Notes: generated by a model from the sequence alone, not told the origin. A stretch of 64,000 bases of DNA from Candidatus Liptonbacteria bacterium (GCA_016204335.1 JACQKU010000008.1:10913-74912), one strand, 5' to 3'; counted from the stretch's first letter, positions 2,149-44,511 are shown. Numbers and translations are program-made.

Positions 2149-3798
2149 TTACTTCAGCACCCTTGCGGTTTTGAGATACCATTCGGAGACATTTTGGAAA
2201 CGGTCGGCCGGTTCGTCAATCAAGCCGGAACTCACGCCATATAAGTCCTTTCTCGTGAAATAAAAATAGTACGGCGAATAAAGGAAAATCGCCGGATGGT
2301 CGTTCGGGATTAGCGCCTGAAGCTCGGAGAGTTCTTTCCCGCGGAGAGATGCGTCGGGATTTTGGCGGATATCCGTCATCAGCCGGTCTGCTTTCGCGTT
2401 ATTGTAAAGCGACAGATTAAGTCCGGGGTAAAATCGTTGCGAAGAGTGCCAAAACGCGAATAAGTCGGAATCGGGGTTCAGCACGTTGCCGAAAAGAATC
2501 GCCTGGTAGTTTCTGTTTTTGATTATGTCGTTTGCCGTTTGTTCAAGCGGGACGAGGTCGATGTCGGCTTTAACTCCGATTTTCCGCCATTCTGCTTGAA
2601 GCTCTTTAGCCGTATCGACGAGAAAAGACACTTGCGGGACGGTTAACGTGAATTTTAAATCAACGGCAGTGTTTTTTATTCTTTTTTGGCGTATAGAACT
2701 CGATGAGTTTATGCGCCAGCCGTCGCTGTCCAGAATCCGGTTTGCGGATTCGAGAGACGCAGTACCCGATGCCGGTTGAATGTCGGAAGAAAGAAACGAA
2801 ACCGGCCCTCGACTTATGTTTCCTTTTCCGCCAAGCGCGACCGCAAGAATAGCGTTGCGGTCAACAGCCGCGTCCAGCGCCTCGCGGACTTTTCCGCTCT
2901 GAAGCGCCAAATTCTGATTTTGATTGAAGAACACCGCGTAGTAGCTCGGCATTGTAAAAGGGTATTCTTCATACGAGCGTTTGATGTTCGAGATATCGTC
3001 AGGTCCGATGCCCGCGAAGCCGTCAATTTGGCCCGTATTGAACGATTGTATAAGTTCGCCGGCGTTTGAAAAAAATTCCAGATTGAAATTGGTAATCATC
3101 GGCTTGGCCTTGAAGTAGCGTGGATTCGCTTTCAGACGATACCGCGTTATGAATCCGTCCGGCCTGTTTTCATACGAGGCGAACGCATACGGGCCGCTTC
3201 CGACCGGCTGGAGATTGTAGCGCGAGAGATTCCAGTTCGCCGCCGGCGTTTCGGCAAAAAGGTGTTTCGGCAGGATATGCAGATTTTTGAGATTTTCGGA
3301 AAAAAAAGCGTACGGGTTCGCCATTTTCAGCTGAATTTCAAGTTCGCTCATTCGTTGGGGAGTTATTCCCTGCCAGCTTGAAAAAAGAGGCGATTTTGTT
3401 TCCGGGTCGCGGATTTTTTGAATGGTGAAAATGATGTCGTCGCTTGTCAGTTTTTCGCCGTCAGACCAGAATATGTTTTCTTTGAGCCGGACATCCCACG
3501 TTTTGGCGTTTTGACTCGGAGTGACGTTGTCGGCAAGTTCGCTGAGATTCGCAAAAAGAAGCCGAACCAAAATTTTATCGGCTTCGGTGGAAGCAAGAAT
3601 CGGATTGATATACGCCGGCTGGCCGGCAATCCCTTCGGTATAATCTCCGCCGCTAGTCGGCACAACCGCTGTTTTCTGGGTTATGAAGATGAGGATTAAA
3701 CCGAGGGAGCTTCCGGCAATAAGGAAAAGCGCCGTCCAAAAGACAGGGCGCTCCCCGCGGGAAAACGCAAAAAAAATTTTCTTAAGTATGGTAATCAC
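2149..3798 (-). CDS. ABC transporter substrate-binding protein, family 5 (peptide/oligopeptide/nickel type)
   Basis: Long SBP_bac_5-like sequence. The ORF-track N-terminus (to 3951) overlaps secG; a GTG at 3796-3798 gives an N-terminal signal/TM segment (VITILKKIFFAF...) and avoids the overlap. Confidence 0.7.
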   Translation of the reverse strand: MITILKKIFFAFSRGERPVFWTALFLIAGSSLGLILIFITQKTAVVPTSGGDYTEGIAGQPAYINPILASTEADKILVRLLFANLSELADNVTPSQNAKTWDVRLKENIFWSDGEKLTSDDIIFTIQKIRDPETKSPLFSSWQGITPQRMSELEIQLKMANPYAFFSENLKNLHILPKHLFAETPAANWNLSRYNLQPVGSGPYAFASYENRPDGFITRYRLKANPRYFKAKPMITNFNLEFFSNAGELIQSFNTGQIDGFAGIGPDDISNIKRSYEEYPFTMPSYYAVFFNQNQNLALQSGKVREALDAAVDRNAILAVALGGKGNISRGPVSFLSSDIQPASGTASLESANRILDSDGWRINSSSSIRQKRIKNTAVDLKFTLTVPQVSFLVDTAKELQAEWRKIGVKADIDLVPLEQTANDIIKNRNYQAILFGNVLNPDSDLFAFWHSSQRFYPGLNLSLYNNAKADRLMTDIRQNPDASLRGKELSELQALIPNDHPAIFLYSPYYFYFTRKDLYGVSSGLIDEPADRFQNVSEWYLKTARVLK

Positions 3799-4419: not shown

Positions 4420-5832
4420 TTAGGAGGGGGATAGAAAATTCTTGTTGCGCCGGACGCGGTGGAAGCGGATGGCGAAGTTATGGGTTTCGGTAATCACGGT
4501 CGGAATGATTTTTTGGAGCTCGGGCGGCGCTTCGCCAAGTTCTTTCGGATTTTTTTCCAGGCCGTAGACGAGCCGTCCGGGTTTTCCCAAAGAAAGAACG
4601 CGGATTTTTTTCGCGGCTTCGAACTGCCCGACAATTTCTTTCGCGGCGTTGAATTGCGCGAGGCCGCCGTCAATAATCATCATGTCGGGATACGGCCACT
4701 CCGGATGGTTCAGCCGCCGCGCCAAAGTTTCTTTTATTGCCGCCGGGTCGTCCGATGGTTTCGCGCTTCTGATTATGAATTTCCGCCAGAATTCTTTTCG
4801 CGGCCGTAGCGCAGTTTCGTTTCCGCTCGCGGCGGAAAATTCCCACGCGGTCATTCCCGCGACTGTTTCTTTGCCGGAAAGATGGGATATGTCGTAGCCC
4901 TCTATCCGAATCGCGGACTCACGCTGACTTGACCCTTCGACACGGCTCCCGTTCGAGGGCCTGAGCGGCCCCTCAGGGCTAGTCGAAGGCAGGGCAGGCG
5001 CGGAATCACGCGGACTATTTTCTGCGTATGTCTGCGTATGGTCTGCGTCACTCAGCGTTTCCAGAAAGTCGCGGTGCGCGAGGATTTTTTCAAGCGCCTC
5101 TTGCTCTCCGGGTTTGAGATTTTTTGCGAATTTTTTTATGGGTTTTCCGATAAGGAAGTTCTTTACGATAATTATATTTTTTCGATATGCGGTTATCTGT
5201 TTTTGAGTCGATGAACTTCCTTTTCGACAACAAAATCCGCCGCAATTTCCGATTTGCGCGTTGAGGCACAGCCGGAGATGCGGTTTTGGACAGGTGCAAT
5301 AAGGGAAATTCCTCCGGAGCATCCGGAGAACCAGTTTCAAAGCGCGGCCTTCGGTGAAGGGGCCGATGGAATTGGCAAGCGGTAGATGGTAGGTGGTAGG
5401 TAGTAGGTTTTTGTGAGTGACAAAAATACGTGGGAATTTTTCTTCGCTAATCGCCGCATAGAAATAGCTTTTGTCGTCGCGCCAGAGGACGTTATACGGC
5501 GGATGAAGCGTTTTAATCAGTTTTGCTTCTTCAATGAGCGCCTCGATTTCTGAGCGGAGAGGAATAAGTTTTAGATGAGTGGCGTTTTCTCGGAGACGTT
5601 CGCTTTTGCCGTCTGCGCCCTTTAGGTAGGATTGCAGGCGGTTTTTCAGGTTGGACGCCTTGCCGATATAGAGAGGTTTTTTGCCAGGCAGTAGAAATGC
5701 GACTTTCTTTGAATTTTTCGCTCGCCGTTGGCGAGCAGTCGCATTTTCACTGCCTGGTCCATAAAAAATATAAACGCCGGGCGTTTTCGGCGCGGTTTTT
5801 ATTTTTTCGCTGATTTTCTTCCAAGAGTTCAC
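4420..5832 (-). CDS. uvrC: UvrC-like excinuclease (GIY-YIG N-terminal domain plus UvrC endonuclease domain), short C-terminus, carrying two in-frame insertions
   Basis: GVYIFYG...LYIGKASNLKNRLQSY (GIY-YIG), HPPYNVLWRDDKSYFY, and RIEGYDISHLSGKETVAGM (UvrC C-domain motif). Extra segments at 5684-5767 and about 4912-5052 interrupt conserved spacing. Confidence 0.7.
   Translation of the reverse strand: MNSWKKISEKIKTAPKTPGVYIFYGPGSENATARQRRAKNSKKVAFLLPGKKPLYIGKASNLKNRLQSYLKGADGKSERLRENATHLKLIPLRSEIEALIEEAKLIKTLHPPYNVLWRDDKSYFYAAISEEKFPRIFVTHKNLLPTTYHLPLANSIGPFTEGRALKLVLRMLRRNFPYCTCPKPHLRLCLNAQIGNCGGFCCRKGSSSTQKQITAYRKNIIIVKNFLIGKPIKKFAKNLKPGEQEALEKILAHRDFLETLSDADHTQTYAENSPRDSAPALPSTSPEGPLRPSNGSRVEGSSQRESAIRIEGYDISHLSGKETVAGMTAWEFSAASGNETALRPRKEFWRKFIIRSAKPSDDPAAIKETLARRLNHPEWPYPDMMIIDGGLAQFNAAKEIVGQFEAAKKIRVLSLGKPGRLVYGLEKNPKELGEAPPELQKIIPTVITETHNFAIRFHRVRRNKNFLSPS
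4912..5052. repeat. GC-rich in-frame insertion within uvrC containing three tandem TCTGCGTATG-like 10-mers and short inverted repeats
   Basis: The region encodes SDADHTQTYAENSPRDSAPALPSTSPEGPLRPSNGSRVEGSSQRESA between conserved UvrC blocks. Composition is clearly higher in GC than the flanks. Repeats tctgcgtatg / tctgcgtatgg / tctgcgtcact. Confidence 0.5.
5684..5767. repeat. Palindromic element family B copy 1 (TIR CCAGGCAGTAGAAATGCGAC...GTCGCATTTTCACTGCCTGG), 84 nt, in-frame inside uvrC GIY-YIG domain
   Basis: Near-perfect 20-nt terminal inverted repeats. Related copies at 26456-26560 and 44778-44904. Confidence 0.6.
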
Positions 5833-5885
5833 ACAGATGTTATAGGTCTTTCACAAATTTTTGTAAAACAGCATTTTTTAGCGAT

Positions 5886-5941
5886 CAAAAGTTCTTCTCT
5901 ACAATCCTTACGATCGTAAAATTTGTAGAGAAGAACTTTTG
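5886..5941. promoter_or_regulatory. 19-bp perfect inverted repeat (CAAAAGTTCTTCTCTACAA...TTGTAGAGAAGAACTTTTG) with loop containing palindrome TTACGATCGTAA, in the uvrC upstream region
   Basis: Read directly from sequence. A CTTACGATCGTAAG palindrome recurs at 20066-20079 upstream of the GDPD gene. Confidence 0.55.
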
Positions 5942-5961
5942 TGTATTGTAAAAACAGAAAG

Positions 5962-5997
5962 CCCCGCGTACGAGAAAGCCGGAGCTTCTGTAGCGGG
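5962..5997 (-). terminator. Putative rho-independent terminator (GCCCCGC...GCGGGGC stem followed by T-tract on minus strand) after the 75-aa ORF
   Basis: 7-bp GC stem with a T-rich run on the minus strand at 5940-5960. Confidence 0.4.
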
Positions 5998-6020
5998 GCA
6001 AACTCGCCCGCAGTCTTACT

Positions 6021-6248
6021 TTACGACTTTACGAGCCGTAGCTTGATGGTTGCCAGGCTCTTTCCGGGGAGATCGGCTTTTTCTCGAGCGAGTACTTCGA
6101 TTTTTGCCTGGCACTTCCGTCCATCGGTGCAGATGATGTCGATGATCTCGTCGATACCCTCACGAACAGGAAGGGTCGCGAACACAGTCGTTGCTCTTCC
6201 TTCCTGGATCCAGCCGAAGATCATTTGGGATACTTCCAAGGTCGCCAC
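6021..6248 (-). CDS. Hypothetical small protein (75 aa)
   Basis: ORF followed by a terminator-like hairpin. No family recognised. Sits in a locally GC-richer segment. Confidence 0.3.
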   Translation of the reverse strand: MATLEVSQMIFGWIQEGRATTVFATLPVREGIDEIIDIICTDGRKCQAKIEVLAREKADLPGKSLATIKLRLVKS

Positions 6249-6335
6249 GCGACATCCTCCTTGTGATTGGGGTCAGGCAGGGGCTTTGTACTATGACAAA
6301 TATACTACATCATCTCTGTTTTTTACAAGCAGACC

Positions 6336-6425
6336 TTATATCAACTTCCTTATCAAGCTCTTCCCGTTCATTTCTTTCGGCTGTGGAATTTCCATCAGTT
6401 CCAGAATCGTCGGGGCGATATTCAT
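6336..6425 (-). pseudogene. Duplicated 3'-terminal fragment of gpmI (about 30 codons: ...PMNIAPTILELMEIPQPKEMNGKSLIRKLI*)
   Basis: About 90% identical to the genuine gpmI 3' end at 7002-7091 (...IAPMILELMEIPQPKEMTGKSLLREFI*). Forms a direct repeat bracketing the TA pair. Confidence 0.7.
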
Positions 6426-6679
6426 TGGTAAATATCATGGTCGCCGACCGAATGGAAATGCGCGATATTTTTTTCGGAGAACTCGAAAATAATTCTATAT
6501 TTGAAACCGATTGAAAACGACCAAAAATCTTTCAGGCGGCCATGGAGTTTATGCGTATCAAGCGTCGGTTCAAAAGGATTTTTTCTGAAAATTCCTTCTC
6601 GTTTTTCCGCGAGAGGTTTGACGGCTTTCGGCAGTTTCTTGTATTCTCTCGCGAACTTCGAAGTATAAATTATGTCCAT
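6422..6679 (-). CDS. Type II toxin, RelE/ParE family
   Basis: 85 aa; KFAREYKKLPKAVK...NPF...LHGRLKDFWSFSIGFKYRIIFEF...IAHFHSVGDHDIYQ matches the RelE/ParE fold signature. Confidence 0.8.
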   Translation of the reverse strand: MDIIYTSKFAREYKKLPKAVKPLAEKREGIFRKNPFEPTLDTHKLHGRLKDFWSFSIGFKYRIIFEFSEKNIAHFHSVGDHDIYQ

Positions 6680-6690
6680 AGCGCGGTGAG

Positions 6691-6906
6691 TTATCTTAAA
6701 TCTTTAAGCGATTTCAGGATTTTCCCCTTTCCGCGGACGATTTCTTTCTGGCTTCCCCGCAATTCCTGAAGCGTTTGTTCTTCTTTCCAAAGCCTGAGAA
6801 GGTCTCGGAAAAATTCGCTCTTCGTAGCGTATTGCCCGGTCCCCACCGCTTTTTCAACTTCCCGCTTTAGCTCTGCCGGGAGAGAAATGTTGACTATGTT
6901 TCTCAT
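6691..6906 (-). CDS. Ribbon-helix-helix antitoxin (ParD/CopG-like)
   Basis: 71 aa; NISLPAELKREVEKAVGTGQYATKSEFFRDLLRLW is an RHH signature. Immediately upstream of the toxin. A TGTAA-N9-TTACA palindrome sits in its promoter region (about 6945-6965). Confidence 0.7.
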   Translation of the reverse strand: MRNIVNISLPAELKREVEKAVGTGQYATKSEFFRDLLRLWKEEQTLQELRGSQKEIVRGKGKILKSLKDLR

Positions 6907-7001
6907 TGGTTTTTATTCTGAATACAATATGACCTTTATTCTATTGTAACAAATTATATTACAGAGTCAATGGGCAGAGCAAGAGAGATGGAACTAAGAT
7001 T

Positions 7002-8534
7002 TTATATAAACTCTCTCAGCAAACTCTTCCCGGTCATTTCTTTCGGCTGTGGAATTTCCATCAGTTCCAGAATCATCGGGGCGATGTCGGAAAGCACGCC
7101 GGTGACTTCCATTGAAAGATTTTTCCAGTTCACGAATTTTCTGCCTTTGAATTCCGGAGCGACGAGATACACGGGCACCGGATTCGGGTCGTGCTGGGTT
7201 TCCATTCTGCCTGTTTCCGGATTGAGCATTTCTTCGACATTCCCGTGGTCGGAAGAAATAACAATAATGGTTTCAGAATTAAGGCCGGCTTTCAGTACCC
7301 TCCCGATTTCTTTATCAATAACTTTGATTGTTTCAACCGCGGCTTCGAAATTGCCGGTGTGGCCAATCGTGTCGGGATTCGCGTAGTTCGCCAGAATAAA
7401 ATCGAACGAACGGCTTTCAATGGCTTGCACGAGGCGGTCGGTGATTGCGGACGCCATCATTTCCGGATGTTCGTCCGGATGGGGAGCGGTAAGCGAGGGA
7501 ATGAAAACCCGATATTCGTTTTTGAACACGGATTCGCGGTAGCCGTTGAAAAAATAGGTGACATGGGCATATTTGTATGTTTCAGCGAGCCGTAGCTGCG
7601 TCTTTCCCGCGTCGCTCAAAATTTTGCCGAGCGGCTCTTCAACGGCTTCCGGCGGATACGCGACCGGCACGGAAAACTTTTCTTCGTAGCGCGTCATTGT
7701 CGCAATATAGAGATTTTGGAATGTTTTGACCGGAAATTTGCCGAATTTTTTTTCGATAAACGCTTCGGCGAGCTGGCGGATGGAATCCTCGCGGAAGTTG
7801 AAAAAAATGAGAGCGTCATTGTCTTTGACCGTTCCGTCCCGCCCAACGCGAAGCGGGGGAAGAAATTCCTCGCTTATGCCGCGCGCATAGTTGTCTTTAA
7901 TCTCGGCTTCAATGTCGCCGGTCATTGGTTGCCGGTCATCGGTCATGCACTCATACGCCCGCCGGGTGACCTGCCAGTTTTGCGTTCTGTCCATAGCGTA
8001 GTATCTGCCGGTCAGCGTGGAGAGTTTTTCAATCGGGATTTCTTTGAGGAATTTTTCGAGCGAGCGCGGCGGACTGTCTTTTCCGTCGGCGAAGAGATGC
8101 AGTTTTACGTTTTCTACATTTTGCTCTTCCGCCATTTGAAGAAGCGCCTGAAGATGTTCGATGGACGCGTGAACGTTCGCGTTGGTAAGGAGGCCGACGA
8201 GATTTACTCCGGAATTATTTTTCCTTGCGTGCAAAAAAGCGTCTTTCAGCGCTTTATTTTCAAAAAAGCTTTTGTCCTGGATTCCGAGCGTAATACGCGG
8301 GAAATACTGGTAAATGACTTTTCCGGCGCCGATGGTCAAATGGCCGACTTCGCTGTTGCCGGTTTCGCCCCACGGCAGGCCCACGCCGATTCCCGATGCC
8401 TGCAAACTGCCCGTCGGAAAGTTTTCTTCGAGCATCCGGAAGCTTTCCGGCTTGACGGCGTGAATCGGATTCGAGGCGTCGTTTCTGCCGATGCCCCATC
8501 CGTCGAGGATGATAAGTACTACGGTTCGTTTCAT
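7002..8534 (-). CDS. gpmI: 2,3-bisphosphoglycerate-independent phosphoglycerate mutase
   Basis: 510 aa; N-terminal VVLIILDGWGIG...NSEVGHLTIGAG and full-length iPGM architecture. Confidence 0.9.
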   Translation of the reverse strand: MKRTVVLIILDGWGIGRNDASNPIHAVKPESFRMLEENFPTGSLQASGIGVGLPWGETGNSEVGHLTIGAGKVIYQYFPRITLGIQDKSFFENKALKDAFLHARKNNSGVNLVGLLTNANVHASIEHLQALLQMAEEQNVENVKLHLFADGKDSPPRSLEKFLKEIPIEKLSTLTGRYYAMDRTQNWQVTRRAYECMTDDRQPMTGDIEAEIKDNYARGISEEFLPPLRVGRDGTVKDNDALIFFNFREDSIRQLAEAFIEKKFGKFPVKTFQNLYIATMTRYEEKFSVPVAYPPEAVEEPLGKILSDAGKTQLRLAETYKYAHVTYFFNGYRESVFKNEYRVFIPSLTAPHPDEHPEMMASAITDRLVQAIESRSFDFILANYANPDTIGHTGNFEAAVETIKVIDKEIGRVLKAGLNSETIIVISSDHGNVEEMLNPETGRMETQHDPNPVPVYLVAPEFKGRKFVNWKNLSMEVTGVLSDIAPMILELMEIPQPKEMTGKSLLREFI

Positions 8535-8921
8535 GAGAGTAATCGCGAACCATTCGACAGGCTCATGATGATTCGGCGAATGATGGTGAGCAAGGTCGAA
8601 CCATAACGCGAATCAAAGAGGTAATAATGCGAATCCGGTATTGTTACTATTTTTCTAATGGGATTCATTACCTTTATATTGTAAGCGATTTTACCCTGTG
8701 TTATCCAGATGTCCCTCTTGACCGAAGTATCCTCGTCTTGCTATCATACAATCATTAAAGAGTCACCAAACAATTTTTCCTAAAAAACTCAAGGAGTAAT
8801 CGCGAATATCACGAATAAAAAGAGATAATAATGCGAATAGTACGTATAGTATTCGCGTTATTACTCGAAGATTCGCGTTATTAGCGAATACTGATTATGA
8901 AGAATTTAGGGATACAACAGT

Positions 8922-44292: not shown

Positions 44293-44511
44293 TTAAAGAT
44301 ATCCGAGTTTTTTCAGATGCTCGCGGATTTGCGTTTCTTCAGCAAAGAGCGGCTTATCGGTTTTTTCCAAAAGAAGTTCGCGCAAAATAAAGGCGACAAA
44401 AGCGGATACAGACACAAAGCCCGTGCCGTCGATTGTTTTTTCTATCCGGGCGTGAAGCGAACGGGGGATTGAGACAGTCGTGTAATCATTCCGTTTCTTT
44501 TTGATAGCCAT
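44293..44511 (-). CDS. Ribbon-helix-helix (CopG/NikR-like) DNA-binding protein
   Basis: TVSIPRSLHARIEKTI...GFVSVSAFVAFILRELL is an RHH signature. First gene of the sat operon. Confidence 0.6.
   Translation of the reverse strand: MAIKKKRNDYTTVSIPRSLHARIEKTIDGTGFVSVSAFVAFILRELLLEKTDKPLFAEETQIREHLKKLGYL

Follow-up and report, generated by a model that had tools for sequence, protein, structure and literature searches.

Insertion of a gene module together with a long duplication of its target has been described for restriction-modification (R-M) modules by Furuta, Abe and Kobayashi 2010 (PMC2853133), following Nobusato et al. 2000 (Gene 259:99), under the name "insertion with long target duplication". 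The modules concerned have no mobility genes and are bracketed by direct repeats of more than 30 bp that are long and variable (tens to ~100 bp), the repeats often span a start or stop codon with the target gene left intact, and the hosts are mostly naturally competent species (PMC2853133). DNA breakage by the restriction enzyme was suggested as a possible common cause (PMC2853133). Mruk and Kobayashi 2014 restated long target duplication for R-M modules only. An application of the concept to toxin-antitoxin (TA) systems of type II was not found in the literature searched, and according to Fraikin et al. 2020 (PMC7167474) it is unknown how TA systems integrate into genomes. Here we describe a TA cassette located directly behind gpmI in a stretch of 64,000 nt (the window, to which the analysis of this genome was confined) from a metagenome-assembled genome (MAG) of an ultra-small groundwater bacterium, Candidatus Liptonbacteria (Patescibacteria). 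Very probably the cassette was acquired horizontally, and its insertion came with a long duplicate of the gpmI end.

The features of the locus are listed below in window coordinates, beginning with gpmI and proceeding in the direction of transcription.

7002-8534, minus strand: gpmI, iPGM-type 2,3-bisphosphoglycerate-independent phosphoglycerate mutase, intact, 510 aa (Pfam Metalloenzyme 9e-62, iPGM_N 3e-57)
6997-7085, minus strand: repeat copy B, the last 28 gpmI codons, the stop codon (7002-7004) and 5 nt
6971-6996, minus strand: spacer of 26 nt from copy B to the -35 box of the cassette, unique, not conserved in other copies of the cassette
6943-6970, minus strand: sigma-70-type promoter of the cassette, -35 box TTGACT (6970-6965), 16 nt, TG-extended -10 box TACAAT (6948-6943)
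6691-6906, minus strand: antitoxin, 71 aa, with an N-terminal ribbon-helix-helix (RHH) domain (Pfam RHH_1 at residues 5-43, 28.5 bits against a cutoff of 20.5)
6422-6679, minus strand: toxin, 85 aa, RelE/StbE family, RelE/ParE superfamily of mRNA interferase type (NCBIfam TIGR02385 RelE_StbE, 31.3 bits against 27.9)
6331-6419, minus strand: repeat copy A, a 5'-truncated gpmI fragment of 28 codons, the stop codon (6336-6338) and 5 nt
6021-6248, minus strand: orf75, an orphan open reading frame (ORF) having a strong Shine-Dalgarno sequence, with the gpmI fragment on one side and the native gpmI-uvrC spacer on the other, outside the cassette family
5761-5933, minus strand: native gpmI-uvrC spacer and start of uvrC; from here on the closest relative is collinear again; holds most of a palindrome at 5886-5941

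Repeat search followed by alignment delimited a direct repeat of 89 nt in two copies that are identical at 79 positions (89%). The copies are spaced 666 nt from start to start, leaving 577 nt between them, and past 6419 and 7085, the limit of similarity, they diverge. Copy A begins 2 nt past the toxin stop codon. In the frame of the gene copy A translates as IAPTILELMEIPQPKEMNGKSLIRKLI and copy B as IAPMILELMEIPQPKEMTGKSLLREFI, each followed by a stop codon at the equal position. The initial annotation of this DNA had reported a duplication of the gpmI end at about 90% identity with its own stop codon, at 6336-6425 and 7002-7091; this was borne out, with boundaries shifted by about 5 nt. An identical core of 41 nt (7034-7074 and 6368-6408) occurs exactly twice in the window as compared to zero occurrences expected from 100 shuffles, and the whole window holds only three families of direct repeats of 40 nt or longer. 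With two copies and so few long repeat families, the gpmI-end repeat is not a dispersed repeat, and the objection named in the initial annotation, a common genome-wide repeat unrelated to gpmI, did not hold, the repeat being unique in the window.

Since the window comes from a MAG, the repeat could in principle be an assembly artefact, or else a chance similarity. Logan contig SRR12113420_243500 (L001), from an independent assembly, is 100% identical to window positions 7047-5766 and joins in a single molecule the tail specific to copy B, the TA pair, copy A, orf75 and the start of uvrC. The contig ends inside copy B, as is expected of a repeat longer than the k-mer, and in this respect an artefact would look the same; the copies however differ at 10 positions, so that they cannot be one sequence used twice, and for a chance similarity zero matches are expected. 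On the account of the linkage within L001 an artefact was set aside, and both explanations are considered extremely improbable. The repeat bracketing the TA pair is thus confirmed as real. A role of the fragment as a terminator or structured RNA was unsupported by RNA folding of copies A and B (z-scores of -0.77 and -0.89), and an Rfam search of positions 5600-7300 returned sub-threshold hairpin noise only. At the junction of toxin and fragment, the toxin stop codon TGA (6424-6422) overlaps an ATG (6425-6423) that starts a 29-codon ORF corresponding to the gpmI fragment. The resulting ATGA overlap at 6420-6425 is an arrangement typical of translational coupling, and it may also be coincidental.

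The sequence between the copies was found to hold the antitoxin, the toxin and a palindromic promoter, as had been annotated initially, within 577 nt that include the 26-nt spacer. The toxin gene follows the antitoxin gene on the same strand after a gap of 11 nt, and this pairing was repeated at all family loci examined. Against the ParD-type model TIGR02606 the antitoxin scored 32.2, under the cutoff of 46.2, and the toxin remained under the Pfam gathering thresholds for YafQ (23.7 vs 30), HigB-like (22.4 vs 27) and ParE (19.4 vs 23). A search of the PDB with the single toxin sequence gave no match. Employing a profile of 31 members of the toxin family, chains of YoeB, HigB, HP0892/HP0894, RelK and RelE3 were matched at E-values of 0.005-0.5, along with two BAR-domain chains at the weakest E-values. 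Toxin residues R62, H81 and Y84 are invariant or nearly so across the family. The module is an ordinary, if divergent, type II TA pair of an RHH antitoxin and a RelE/StbE toxin. It resembles RelBE, YefM-YoeB and ParDE in having the antitoxin first and the toxin second, an RHH domain and a palindromic operator within its own promoter, but differs from the characterised members of these systems in being distant (profile E 0.005-0.3) and in belonging to a subfamily found largely in Patescibacteria.

The promoter is strong, matching the consensus at 10 of 12 positions in a promoter scan. A palindrome TGTAA-N9-TTACA (TGTAATATAATTTGTTACA), unique in the window, lies at 6945-6963 between the -35 and -10 boxes. 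Most family members carry a palindrome of the type TGTAATAC-N-TATTACA (TGTAGCAC...GTGCTACA in one subfamily) either between the -35 and -10 boxes or just past the -10 box. Family membership and operator position suggest that the RHH antitoxin would bind the palindrome in its own promoter, repress the operon and neutralise the toxin, and that the cassette is a compact, probably self-regulated unit of ~550-580 nt. The toxin, as a predicted RelE-type mRNA interferase, would arrest translation once the labile antitoxin is lost, and on account of such behaviour the cassette would be hard to lose. No significant match nearby was found as a source for the spacer at 6971-6996. A filler between target copy and cassette made as an inverted or direct copy of a neighbouring sequence, as expected from template switching, was not significant (best p=0.03 before correction for 10 tests).

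The toxin has 609 homologues, almost all of them in Patescibacteria. Genomic contexts of the close homologues together with 32 metagenome loci placed the pair of 71-aa RHH antitoxin and 85-aa toxin, with its promoter and operator, in ~31 unrelated neighbourhoods, for instance by pilin genes, by ruvB or by a hicBA pair, behind a gene for a dCMP deaminase or for a Fic protein, and in between genes for glycosyltransferases. Because the same promoter/operator-antitoxin-toxin unit recurs in so many unrelated neighbourhoods, the sequence comparison marks the cassette as clearly mobile horizontally, which supports the earlier proposal of a mobile or horizontally exchanged TA module. Similarity between copies of the cassette spans the -35 box to the toxin stop codon, with the operator palindrome conserved across the family, and no shared sequence was detected upstream of the -35 box or past the toxin stop codon across 30+ loci. 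Collections of phages and plasmids contained only distant relatives of the toxin (27-46% identity), and neither a close relative nor a vehicle was found in them.

TA pairs are also known as minimal cassettes lacking a recombinase in integrons, with attC sites, and in pdif modules, with XerC/D sites, where the recombination site is conserved. Here, unlike in such cassettes, nothing is conserved outside the stretch from the -35 box to the toxin stop codon and the flanking repeats are host gene sequence; an integron-type or pdif-type cassette was rejected as no conserved recombination site is present at the border across 30+ loci. A transposon or miniature inverted-repeat transposable element was rejected too, as no inverted repeat flanks the cassette and the duplications are long and variable, not short and fixed.

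Some cassette loci have further passengers or unusual surroundings. At L109 a HicA toxin (Pfam 4e-13) with an upstream 72-aa partner (DUF7387) directly follows the RHH-RelE cassette at 3364-3793; together they make up a small TA island, with an RNase J-like gene upstream of it. At L126-L135 a stop codon interrupts a gene of the NTPase_I-T family ~60-250 nt past the toxin, leaving 22 codons at the start and 61 aa behind them, so that the gene appears to be a pseudogene. L119 is a contig of 1306 nt with the cassette and one other ORF whose positions 1-87 and 1220-1306 are identical; the unit is circular or tandem, or else the contig has long direct repeats at its two ends.

GpmI of the window is 100% identical to a Candidatus Liptonbacteria protein at NCBI, and the exact toxin protein is annotated in a Candidatus Liptonbacteria MAG as well. 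The closest relatives of GpmI in a large protein collection are P0122 (89% identical) and P0123 (83%). On their contigs gpmI leads directly into uvrC, the spacers measuring 145 and 45 nt; the gpmI end is single and a TA pair is missing. At the loci with these identities, L090 (GpmI 89%) and L091-L093 (83%), one gpmI end is followed by uvrC; they belong to species other than that of the window. In a blastn alignment the collinearity of L090 with the window extends to position 6990, 12 nt beyond the gpmI stop codon on the copy B side, and restarts at 5933, with L090 3479-3654 aligning to window 5933-5761 at 77% identity. Compared to L090, ~1.05 kb (~6990 to 5934) is thus specific to the lineage of the window and comprises the cassette, fragment A and orf75. 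The gpmI fragment accordingly sits inside lineage-specific DNA and not at its outer edge.

Among species-representative genomes the nearest GpmI proteins are 60-70% identical, and gene order consists of a divergent rny, gpmI, sometimes uvrC, a gene for a 117-aa membrane protein and secG; the TA pair, orf75 and a second gpmI end were absent from the nearest relatives in this collection. A duplicated gpmI end was found at none of the 79 gpmI loci with downstream sequence. Neither at these loci nor in L090-L093 was there a relative that lacks the TA pair and yet carries the extra gpmI end, a finding which the initial annotation had named as one that would speak against its reading. An exact search for the 41-nt core in JGI metagenomes and an exact look-up of GpmI in the contig index gave no match. 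The TA pair right behind gpmI at L029 is a different pair without a duplication and looks coincidental.

For long target duplications Furuta et al. 2010 required a complete module between the repeats, an insert of <20 kb without a mobility gene, repeats of >30 bp of the target, a related empty site with one copy, and a repeat that is not dispersed. In the window an insert of 577 nt contains promoter, antitoxin and toxin only, the target repeat is 89 nt, empty sites exist in other species, and there are two copies in 64 kb. The locus is therefore like the R-M cases in that a small addiction-type module without a mobility gene is flanked by long repeats of host sequence, single at the empty site, with the target intact. 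The gene remains intact as the duplicated segment runs through the stop codon. Unlike the R-M cases, the passenger is a type II TA module whose toxin family cleaves mRNA and not DNA, and the host is a Patescibacterium.

In order to determine how often such scars occur, the flank upstream of the antitoxin was compared to the flank downstream of the toxin in every cassette locus. Three further insertions were found with a direct repeat of which one copy precedes the -35 box by 15-30 nt and the other follows the toxin stop codon after 0-15 nt. At L094 the last 23 codons of recA (Pfam RecA 8e-55) and the stop codon are duplicated over 70 nt at 100% identity with sharp ends. The cassette is convergent with recA at this locus; the order from the host gene, intact gene, cassette and 3' fragment, is as in the window with the cassette inverted. 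At L096 the end of a gene for a PEP-utilising enzyme is duplicated, 27 nt being identical and followed by a diverged, recognisably homologous tail. At L109 the upstream gene has a terminator hairpin of 28 nt, and a second copy of it (26/28) stands directly past the toxin stop codon. TA pairs of the same family were thus found beside other duplicated ends, as the initial annotation had proposed to look for.

The scar was observed at 4/31 cassettes and at 1/311 control gene units (Fisher p=2.6e-4), the latter being real ORFs or ORF pairs of similar size, and at 0/1032 arbitrarily placed pseudo-cassettes (p=6e-7), with the same geometric criteria applied to the controls. Many hits in an arbitrary-position null control were traced to tandem gpmI paralogs with a conserved motif and were discarded as not being mobile DNA. 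Such paralogs occur at L030, L055, L071 and ~20 other distant gpmI loci of Parcubacteria, where two copies lie ~1.55 kb apart and share the motif AETEKYAHVTYFFNGG at >90% nucleotide identity, ~550 nt upstream of gpmI and ~980 nt inside it.

The single positive among the controls, L120, has the same scar with a different passenger at the end of an OMP decarboxylase gene. An ORF of 194 aa without a Pfam family lies within the 3' end of this gene (L120 456-1140, equivalent to L121 1968-2672), and the gene end is duplicated, the two ends reading EEARKLCEEIR-KYKNI-stop and EEARKLCEEIR-SRL-stop. In the shared codons all 5 of 5 differences are synonymous, which indicates that two functional alleles were joined. 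The ORF lies directly upstream of a cassette that belongs to the TA family described here, and the distant relative L117 is without the extra ORF. L121 was rejected as an empty site of L120, being the same filled locus at 97.9% identity. Four loci with a looser geometry were not counted: a 31-nt hairpin at L107/L108, 74 nt at 85% enclosing a second gene at L097, the contig-end overlap of L119, and 38 nt at ~74% at L087. The host genes at the scars, gpmI, recA, the PEP-utilising enzyme gene and the OMP decarboxylase gene, are all conserved housekeeping genes. This is what a homology anchor requires.

The differences between the two copies in the window are distributed unevenly. Copies A and B are sisters, matching at 76/84 positions as compared to 66-71/84 for either copy versus L090/L091, and they share derived synonymous states. 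Within the gene-internal core of 57 nt they differ at 2/57 positions, as opposed to 7-11/57 for either copy versus the relatives. In the 27-nt tail (7002-7028 in copy B) they differ at 6/27 positions, and either copy differs from L090/L091 at 6-7/27. This heterogeneity between core and tail (p=0.012) is absent in ortholog pairs, and the clustering of the ten differences is significant after scan correction (p=0.006). In the 12 nt past the stop codon copy B resembles L090 at 8/12 positions and copy A at 1/12. A divergence of 4% in the core and 22% in the tail is consistent with a crossover in the 41-nt block and suggests two alleles. The copies at L094 are uniformly identical over their 70 nt. 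A donor allele was not found. Across the gene-end cases the stop-proximal part is diverged in 3/4 (the window, L096 and L120), L094 being the exception, and one boundary of the repeat always falls at a stop codon or a terminator. The mosaic, the stop-proximal divergence and the position of the boundary together disfavour a simple duplication followed by neutral decay.

These observations led us to a specific model of a donor tail combined with an illegitimate joint, to which we give slightly better than even credence on the strength of the sequence patterns. A related donor would already carry the cassette a few nt downstream of its own gpmI. The incoming DNA would recombine by homology in the 3' part of gpmI, which is conserved and where the 41-nt identical stretch would be the simplest site, while its far end, 2 nt past the toxin stop codon and without homology, would join illegitimately to the recipient gpmI at codon -28. 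As this joint would lie slightly upstream of the end of homology, the recipient terminus would be left behind as fragment A. Copy B would then consist of the recipient core and the donor tail (7002-7028), and copy A would be the displaced native terminus, still attached to the native downstream DNA with orf75 and uvrC. The core would need only one later substitution, from Thr to Met in an otherwise invariant APT motif. Codon 486 of gpmI (window position 7075) encodes Met in the working gene, and Thr in fragment A and in all 26 other GpmI tails inspected. The position lies in the motif APT(I/V)LE and represents a derived nonsynonymous change at a conserved site; copy A keeps the APT motif, which is conserved in all relatives examined.

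Homology-facilitated illegitimate recombination has reportedly been described in natural transformation by de Vries and Wackernagel 2002 and by Prudhomme et al. 2002. Transformability of Patescibacteria is known from the literature. The proposed route is like homology-facilitated illegitimate recombination in that one end is anchored in a conserved gene, the other is joined illegitimately, and foreign genes come to lie beside conserved ones with no recombinase of their own involved. It differs from it in the outcome, as the classical result is an insertion with a deletion in the recipient and here a joint upstream of the end of homology would produce a duplication. The model differs as well from the simple duplication of the R-M cases, in that the copies in the window, L096 and L120 are mosaic and point to donor and recipient alleles.

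Several observations weigh against this account. The mosaic is made up of small counts (2/57 vs 6/27), and the codons that differ between A and B, 5 nonsynonymous versus 2 synonymous, also fit a relaxed decay of a pseudo-copy. Both tails are equally far from the outgroups, so the foreign nature of the B tail is argued from its adjacency only. No convincing microhomology was found at the illegitimate junction, and sliding-window divergence along gpmI versus L090/L091 was itself mosaic with no distinct signal at the 3' end. Neither an empty site in the same species nor the donor arrangement (gpmI with a B-type tail, cassette, uvrC) was found, and ~27/31 insertions of the family are without a duplication.

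The first of the competing explanations is a one-step insertion with a true target-site duplication. A staggered break with nicks ~89 nt apart would have been filled on both sides from resident sequence, giving copies that were identical to begin with; copy A would have decayed neutrally later while B acquired a few changes, and the identity of the core would be due to gene conversion. In its architecture the locus is just like an insertion with long target duplication, and the L094 copies, 100% identical over 70 nt with sharp ends, look as such an event would leave them. Polarised changes are more numerous on A (4-6 coding and 2 past the stop codon) than on B (2-4), as expected of a pseudo-copy, and the differences are mostly nonsynonymous. 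Decay does not however account for differences that are strongly clustered (p=0.006; core vs tail p=0.012), for a tail divergence that equals the level between species next to a nearly identical core, or for stop-proximal divergence in 3/4 gene-end cases. Nor can it produce the purely synonymous differences at L120, and a random staggered cut leaves the boundary at a stop codon or terminator unexplained. We therefore regard it as unlikely. Less probable still is a Campbell-type integration, where a 666-nt circle made of a gpmI 3' fragment and the cassette came from a relative and entered by a single homologous crossover, with the repeats able to loop the cassette out later. A single crossover with a gene 3'-end fragment gives this topology in either orientation, co-directional as in the window or convergent as at L094; the unit length equals one repeat plus the cassette, and the identical 87-nt ends of L119 are as expected of a circle or a repeat-bounded unit. 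A single crossover alone would not, however, give identical cores with divergent tails, incoming DNA in natural transformation is linear and single-stranded, and a circular junction, with the toxin end joined to codon -28 and chromosomal flanks missing, was not observed. The L119 overlap, for its part, may be an assembler artefact.

The locus also resembles the footprint of site-specific integration. Integrative elements classically target gene 3' ends and regenerate them with an element-borne end that is somewhat diverged, as in tRNA-targeting islands and e14 in icd, and the locus is like these in having an intact gene with a substituted, diverged terminus and a displaced original 3' fragment. 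The repeats would in this case be attL and attR of an element that targets the gpmI 3' end with a replacement terminus, either with a recombinase acting in trans or as the remnant of a larger element whose integrase was lost, and site-specific recombination is listed by Furuta et al. as one class of flanking direct repeats (PMC2853133). Such elements differ in having an integrase, an att core conserved among insertions and a fixed orientation, all of which are missing here, where the insert measures only ~0.58 kb. The 577 nt are filled by the spacer, the promoter and two small genes (71 and 85 aa), so that a recombinase would not fit in, and the scar of a deletion is not seen; the repeats at the different loci are unrelated host sequences of 27-89 nt with no shared core, and no element is conserved past the toxin stop codon across loci. 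Taken together this makes site-specific integration improbable to a high degree. Of the earlier proposal that a cassette inserted at or recombined into the gpmI 3' end while regenerating the terminus, the regenerated end fits the mosaic of core and tail, and the proposal is supported with three refinements: the gpmI fragment lies inside ~1.05 kb of extra DNA together with orf75, the cassette is not a classical site-specific integrative element, and the scar is recurrent and corresponds to what had already been named for R-M modules. A mirror-image import would start from a resident gpmI with the B tail, the cassette and uvrC, on the uvrC side of which a fragment from a relative (A and orf75) later recombined and was joined illegitimately behind the toxin. 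Fragment A and orf75 are contiguous and both absent from the nearest relatives, the nucleotides of copy B past its stop codon look native, and orf75 is an orphan with a G+C of 0.53, slightly above that of the cassette. Such an import leaves near-identical cores beside 22%-diverged tails unexplained, there being no crossover in the repeat; the end of the foreign fragment would have to fall exactly 2 nt past the toxin stop codon by chance, and the recurrent cases hold the cassette and not a second passenger between the copies. It is accordingly the least credible of the explanations that take the repeat as real, and very improbable.

Downstream of the gpmI fragment, orf75 has the Shine-Dalgarno sequence AAGGAGG and is called with 67 aa by NCBI. 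Its flanks (5945-6330) contain a promoter-like site at 6328-6299 ahead of the ORF and a terminator-like hairpin at ~5962-5975. A search of 5.8 billion sequences together with a scan of 1.8 billion representatives returned no homologue beyond orf75 itself, two matches to giant proteins being discarded as repetitive and uninformative, and the ORF was absent at all other loci compared, including the nearest relatives. It is followed by uvrC at 4420-5832. Just upstream of uvrC the palindrome at 5886-5941, 28+28 nt with 89% complementarity and no loop, is kept in L090; it may serve as an operator or as a bidirectional terminator. On the other side of gpmI two repeats composed of AAT(N)GCGAA-like motifs lie in the intergenic region to the divergent rny (8535-8921, 387 nt, ~36-40% G+C), a direct one of 20 nt (8615-8634 and 8819-8838; 95%) and an inverted one of 31 nt (8596-8626 and 8838-8868). 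The exact motif TAATNGCGAA from this spacer showed no significant enrichment in the window (4 found vs 1.7 expected). Elsewhere in the window, positions 44326-44487 on the minus strand have a weak likeness to the RHH antitoxin (29% over 55 aa, E=0.03) and may encode another small RHH protein.

The scar described here for one TA family at the ends of conserved housekeeping genes is recurrent, statistically supported, and the same as that reported for R-M modules. Double-strand breakage, the cause proposed for the R-M cases, cannot apply here because the toxin family acts on mRNA, which argues that the mechanism resides in the recombination machinery of the host and not in the passenger. The recurrent scar suggests that mobility of TA modules is tied to a known, poorly understood mode of insertion and to a host-driven, homology-assisted mechanism. 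Tentatively, and at somewhat less than even confidence, the pattern may extend to a general host route in Patescibacteria, by which TA cassettes and small accessory genes would spread without a recombinase of their own, through homology and an illegitimate joint, probably during natural transformation, leaving a long target duplication that regenerates the gene terminus. If such a route exists, the scars would be the first evidence at the level of footprints for the integration of chromosomal TA modules, and long target duplication of the R-M type would be independent of DNA cleavage by the passenger. Reduced genomes with few classical mobile elements could in this manner shuffle small defence and addiction cassettes with their essential genes undisrupted.

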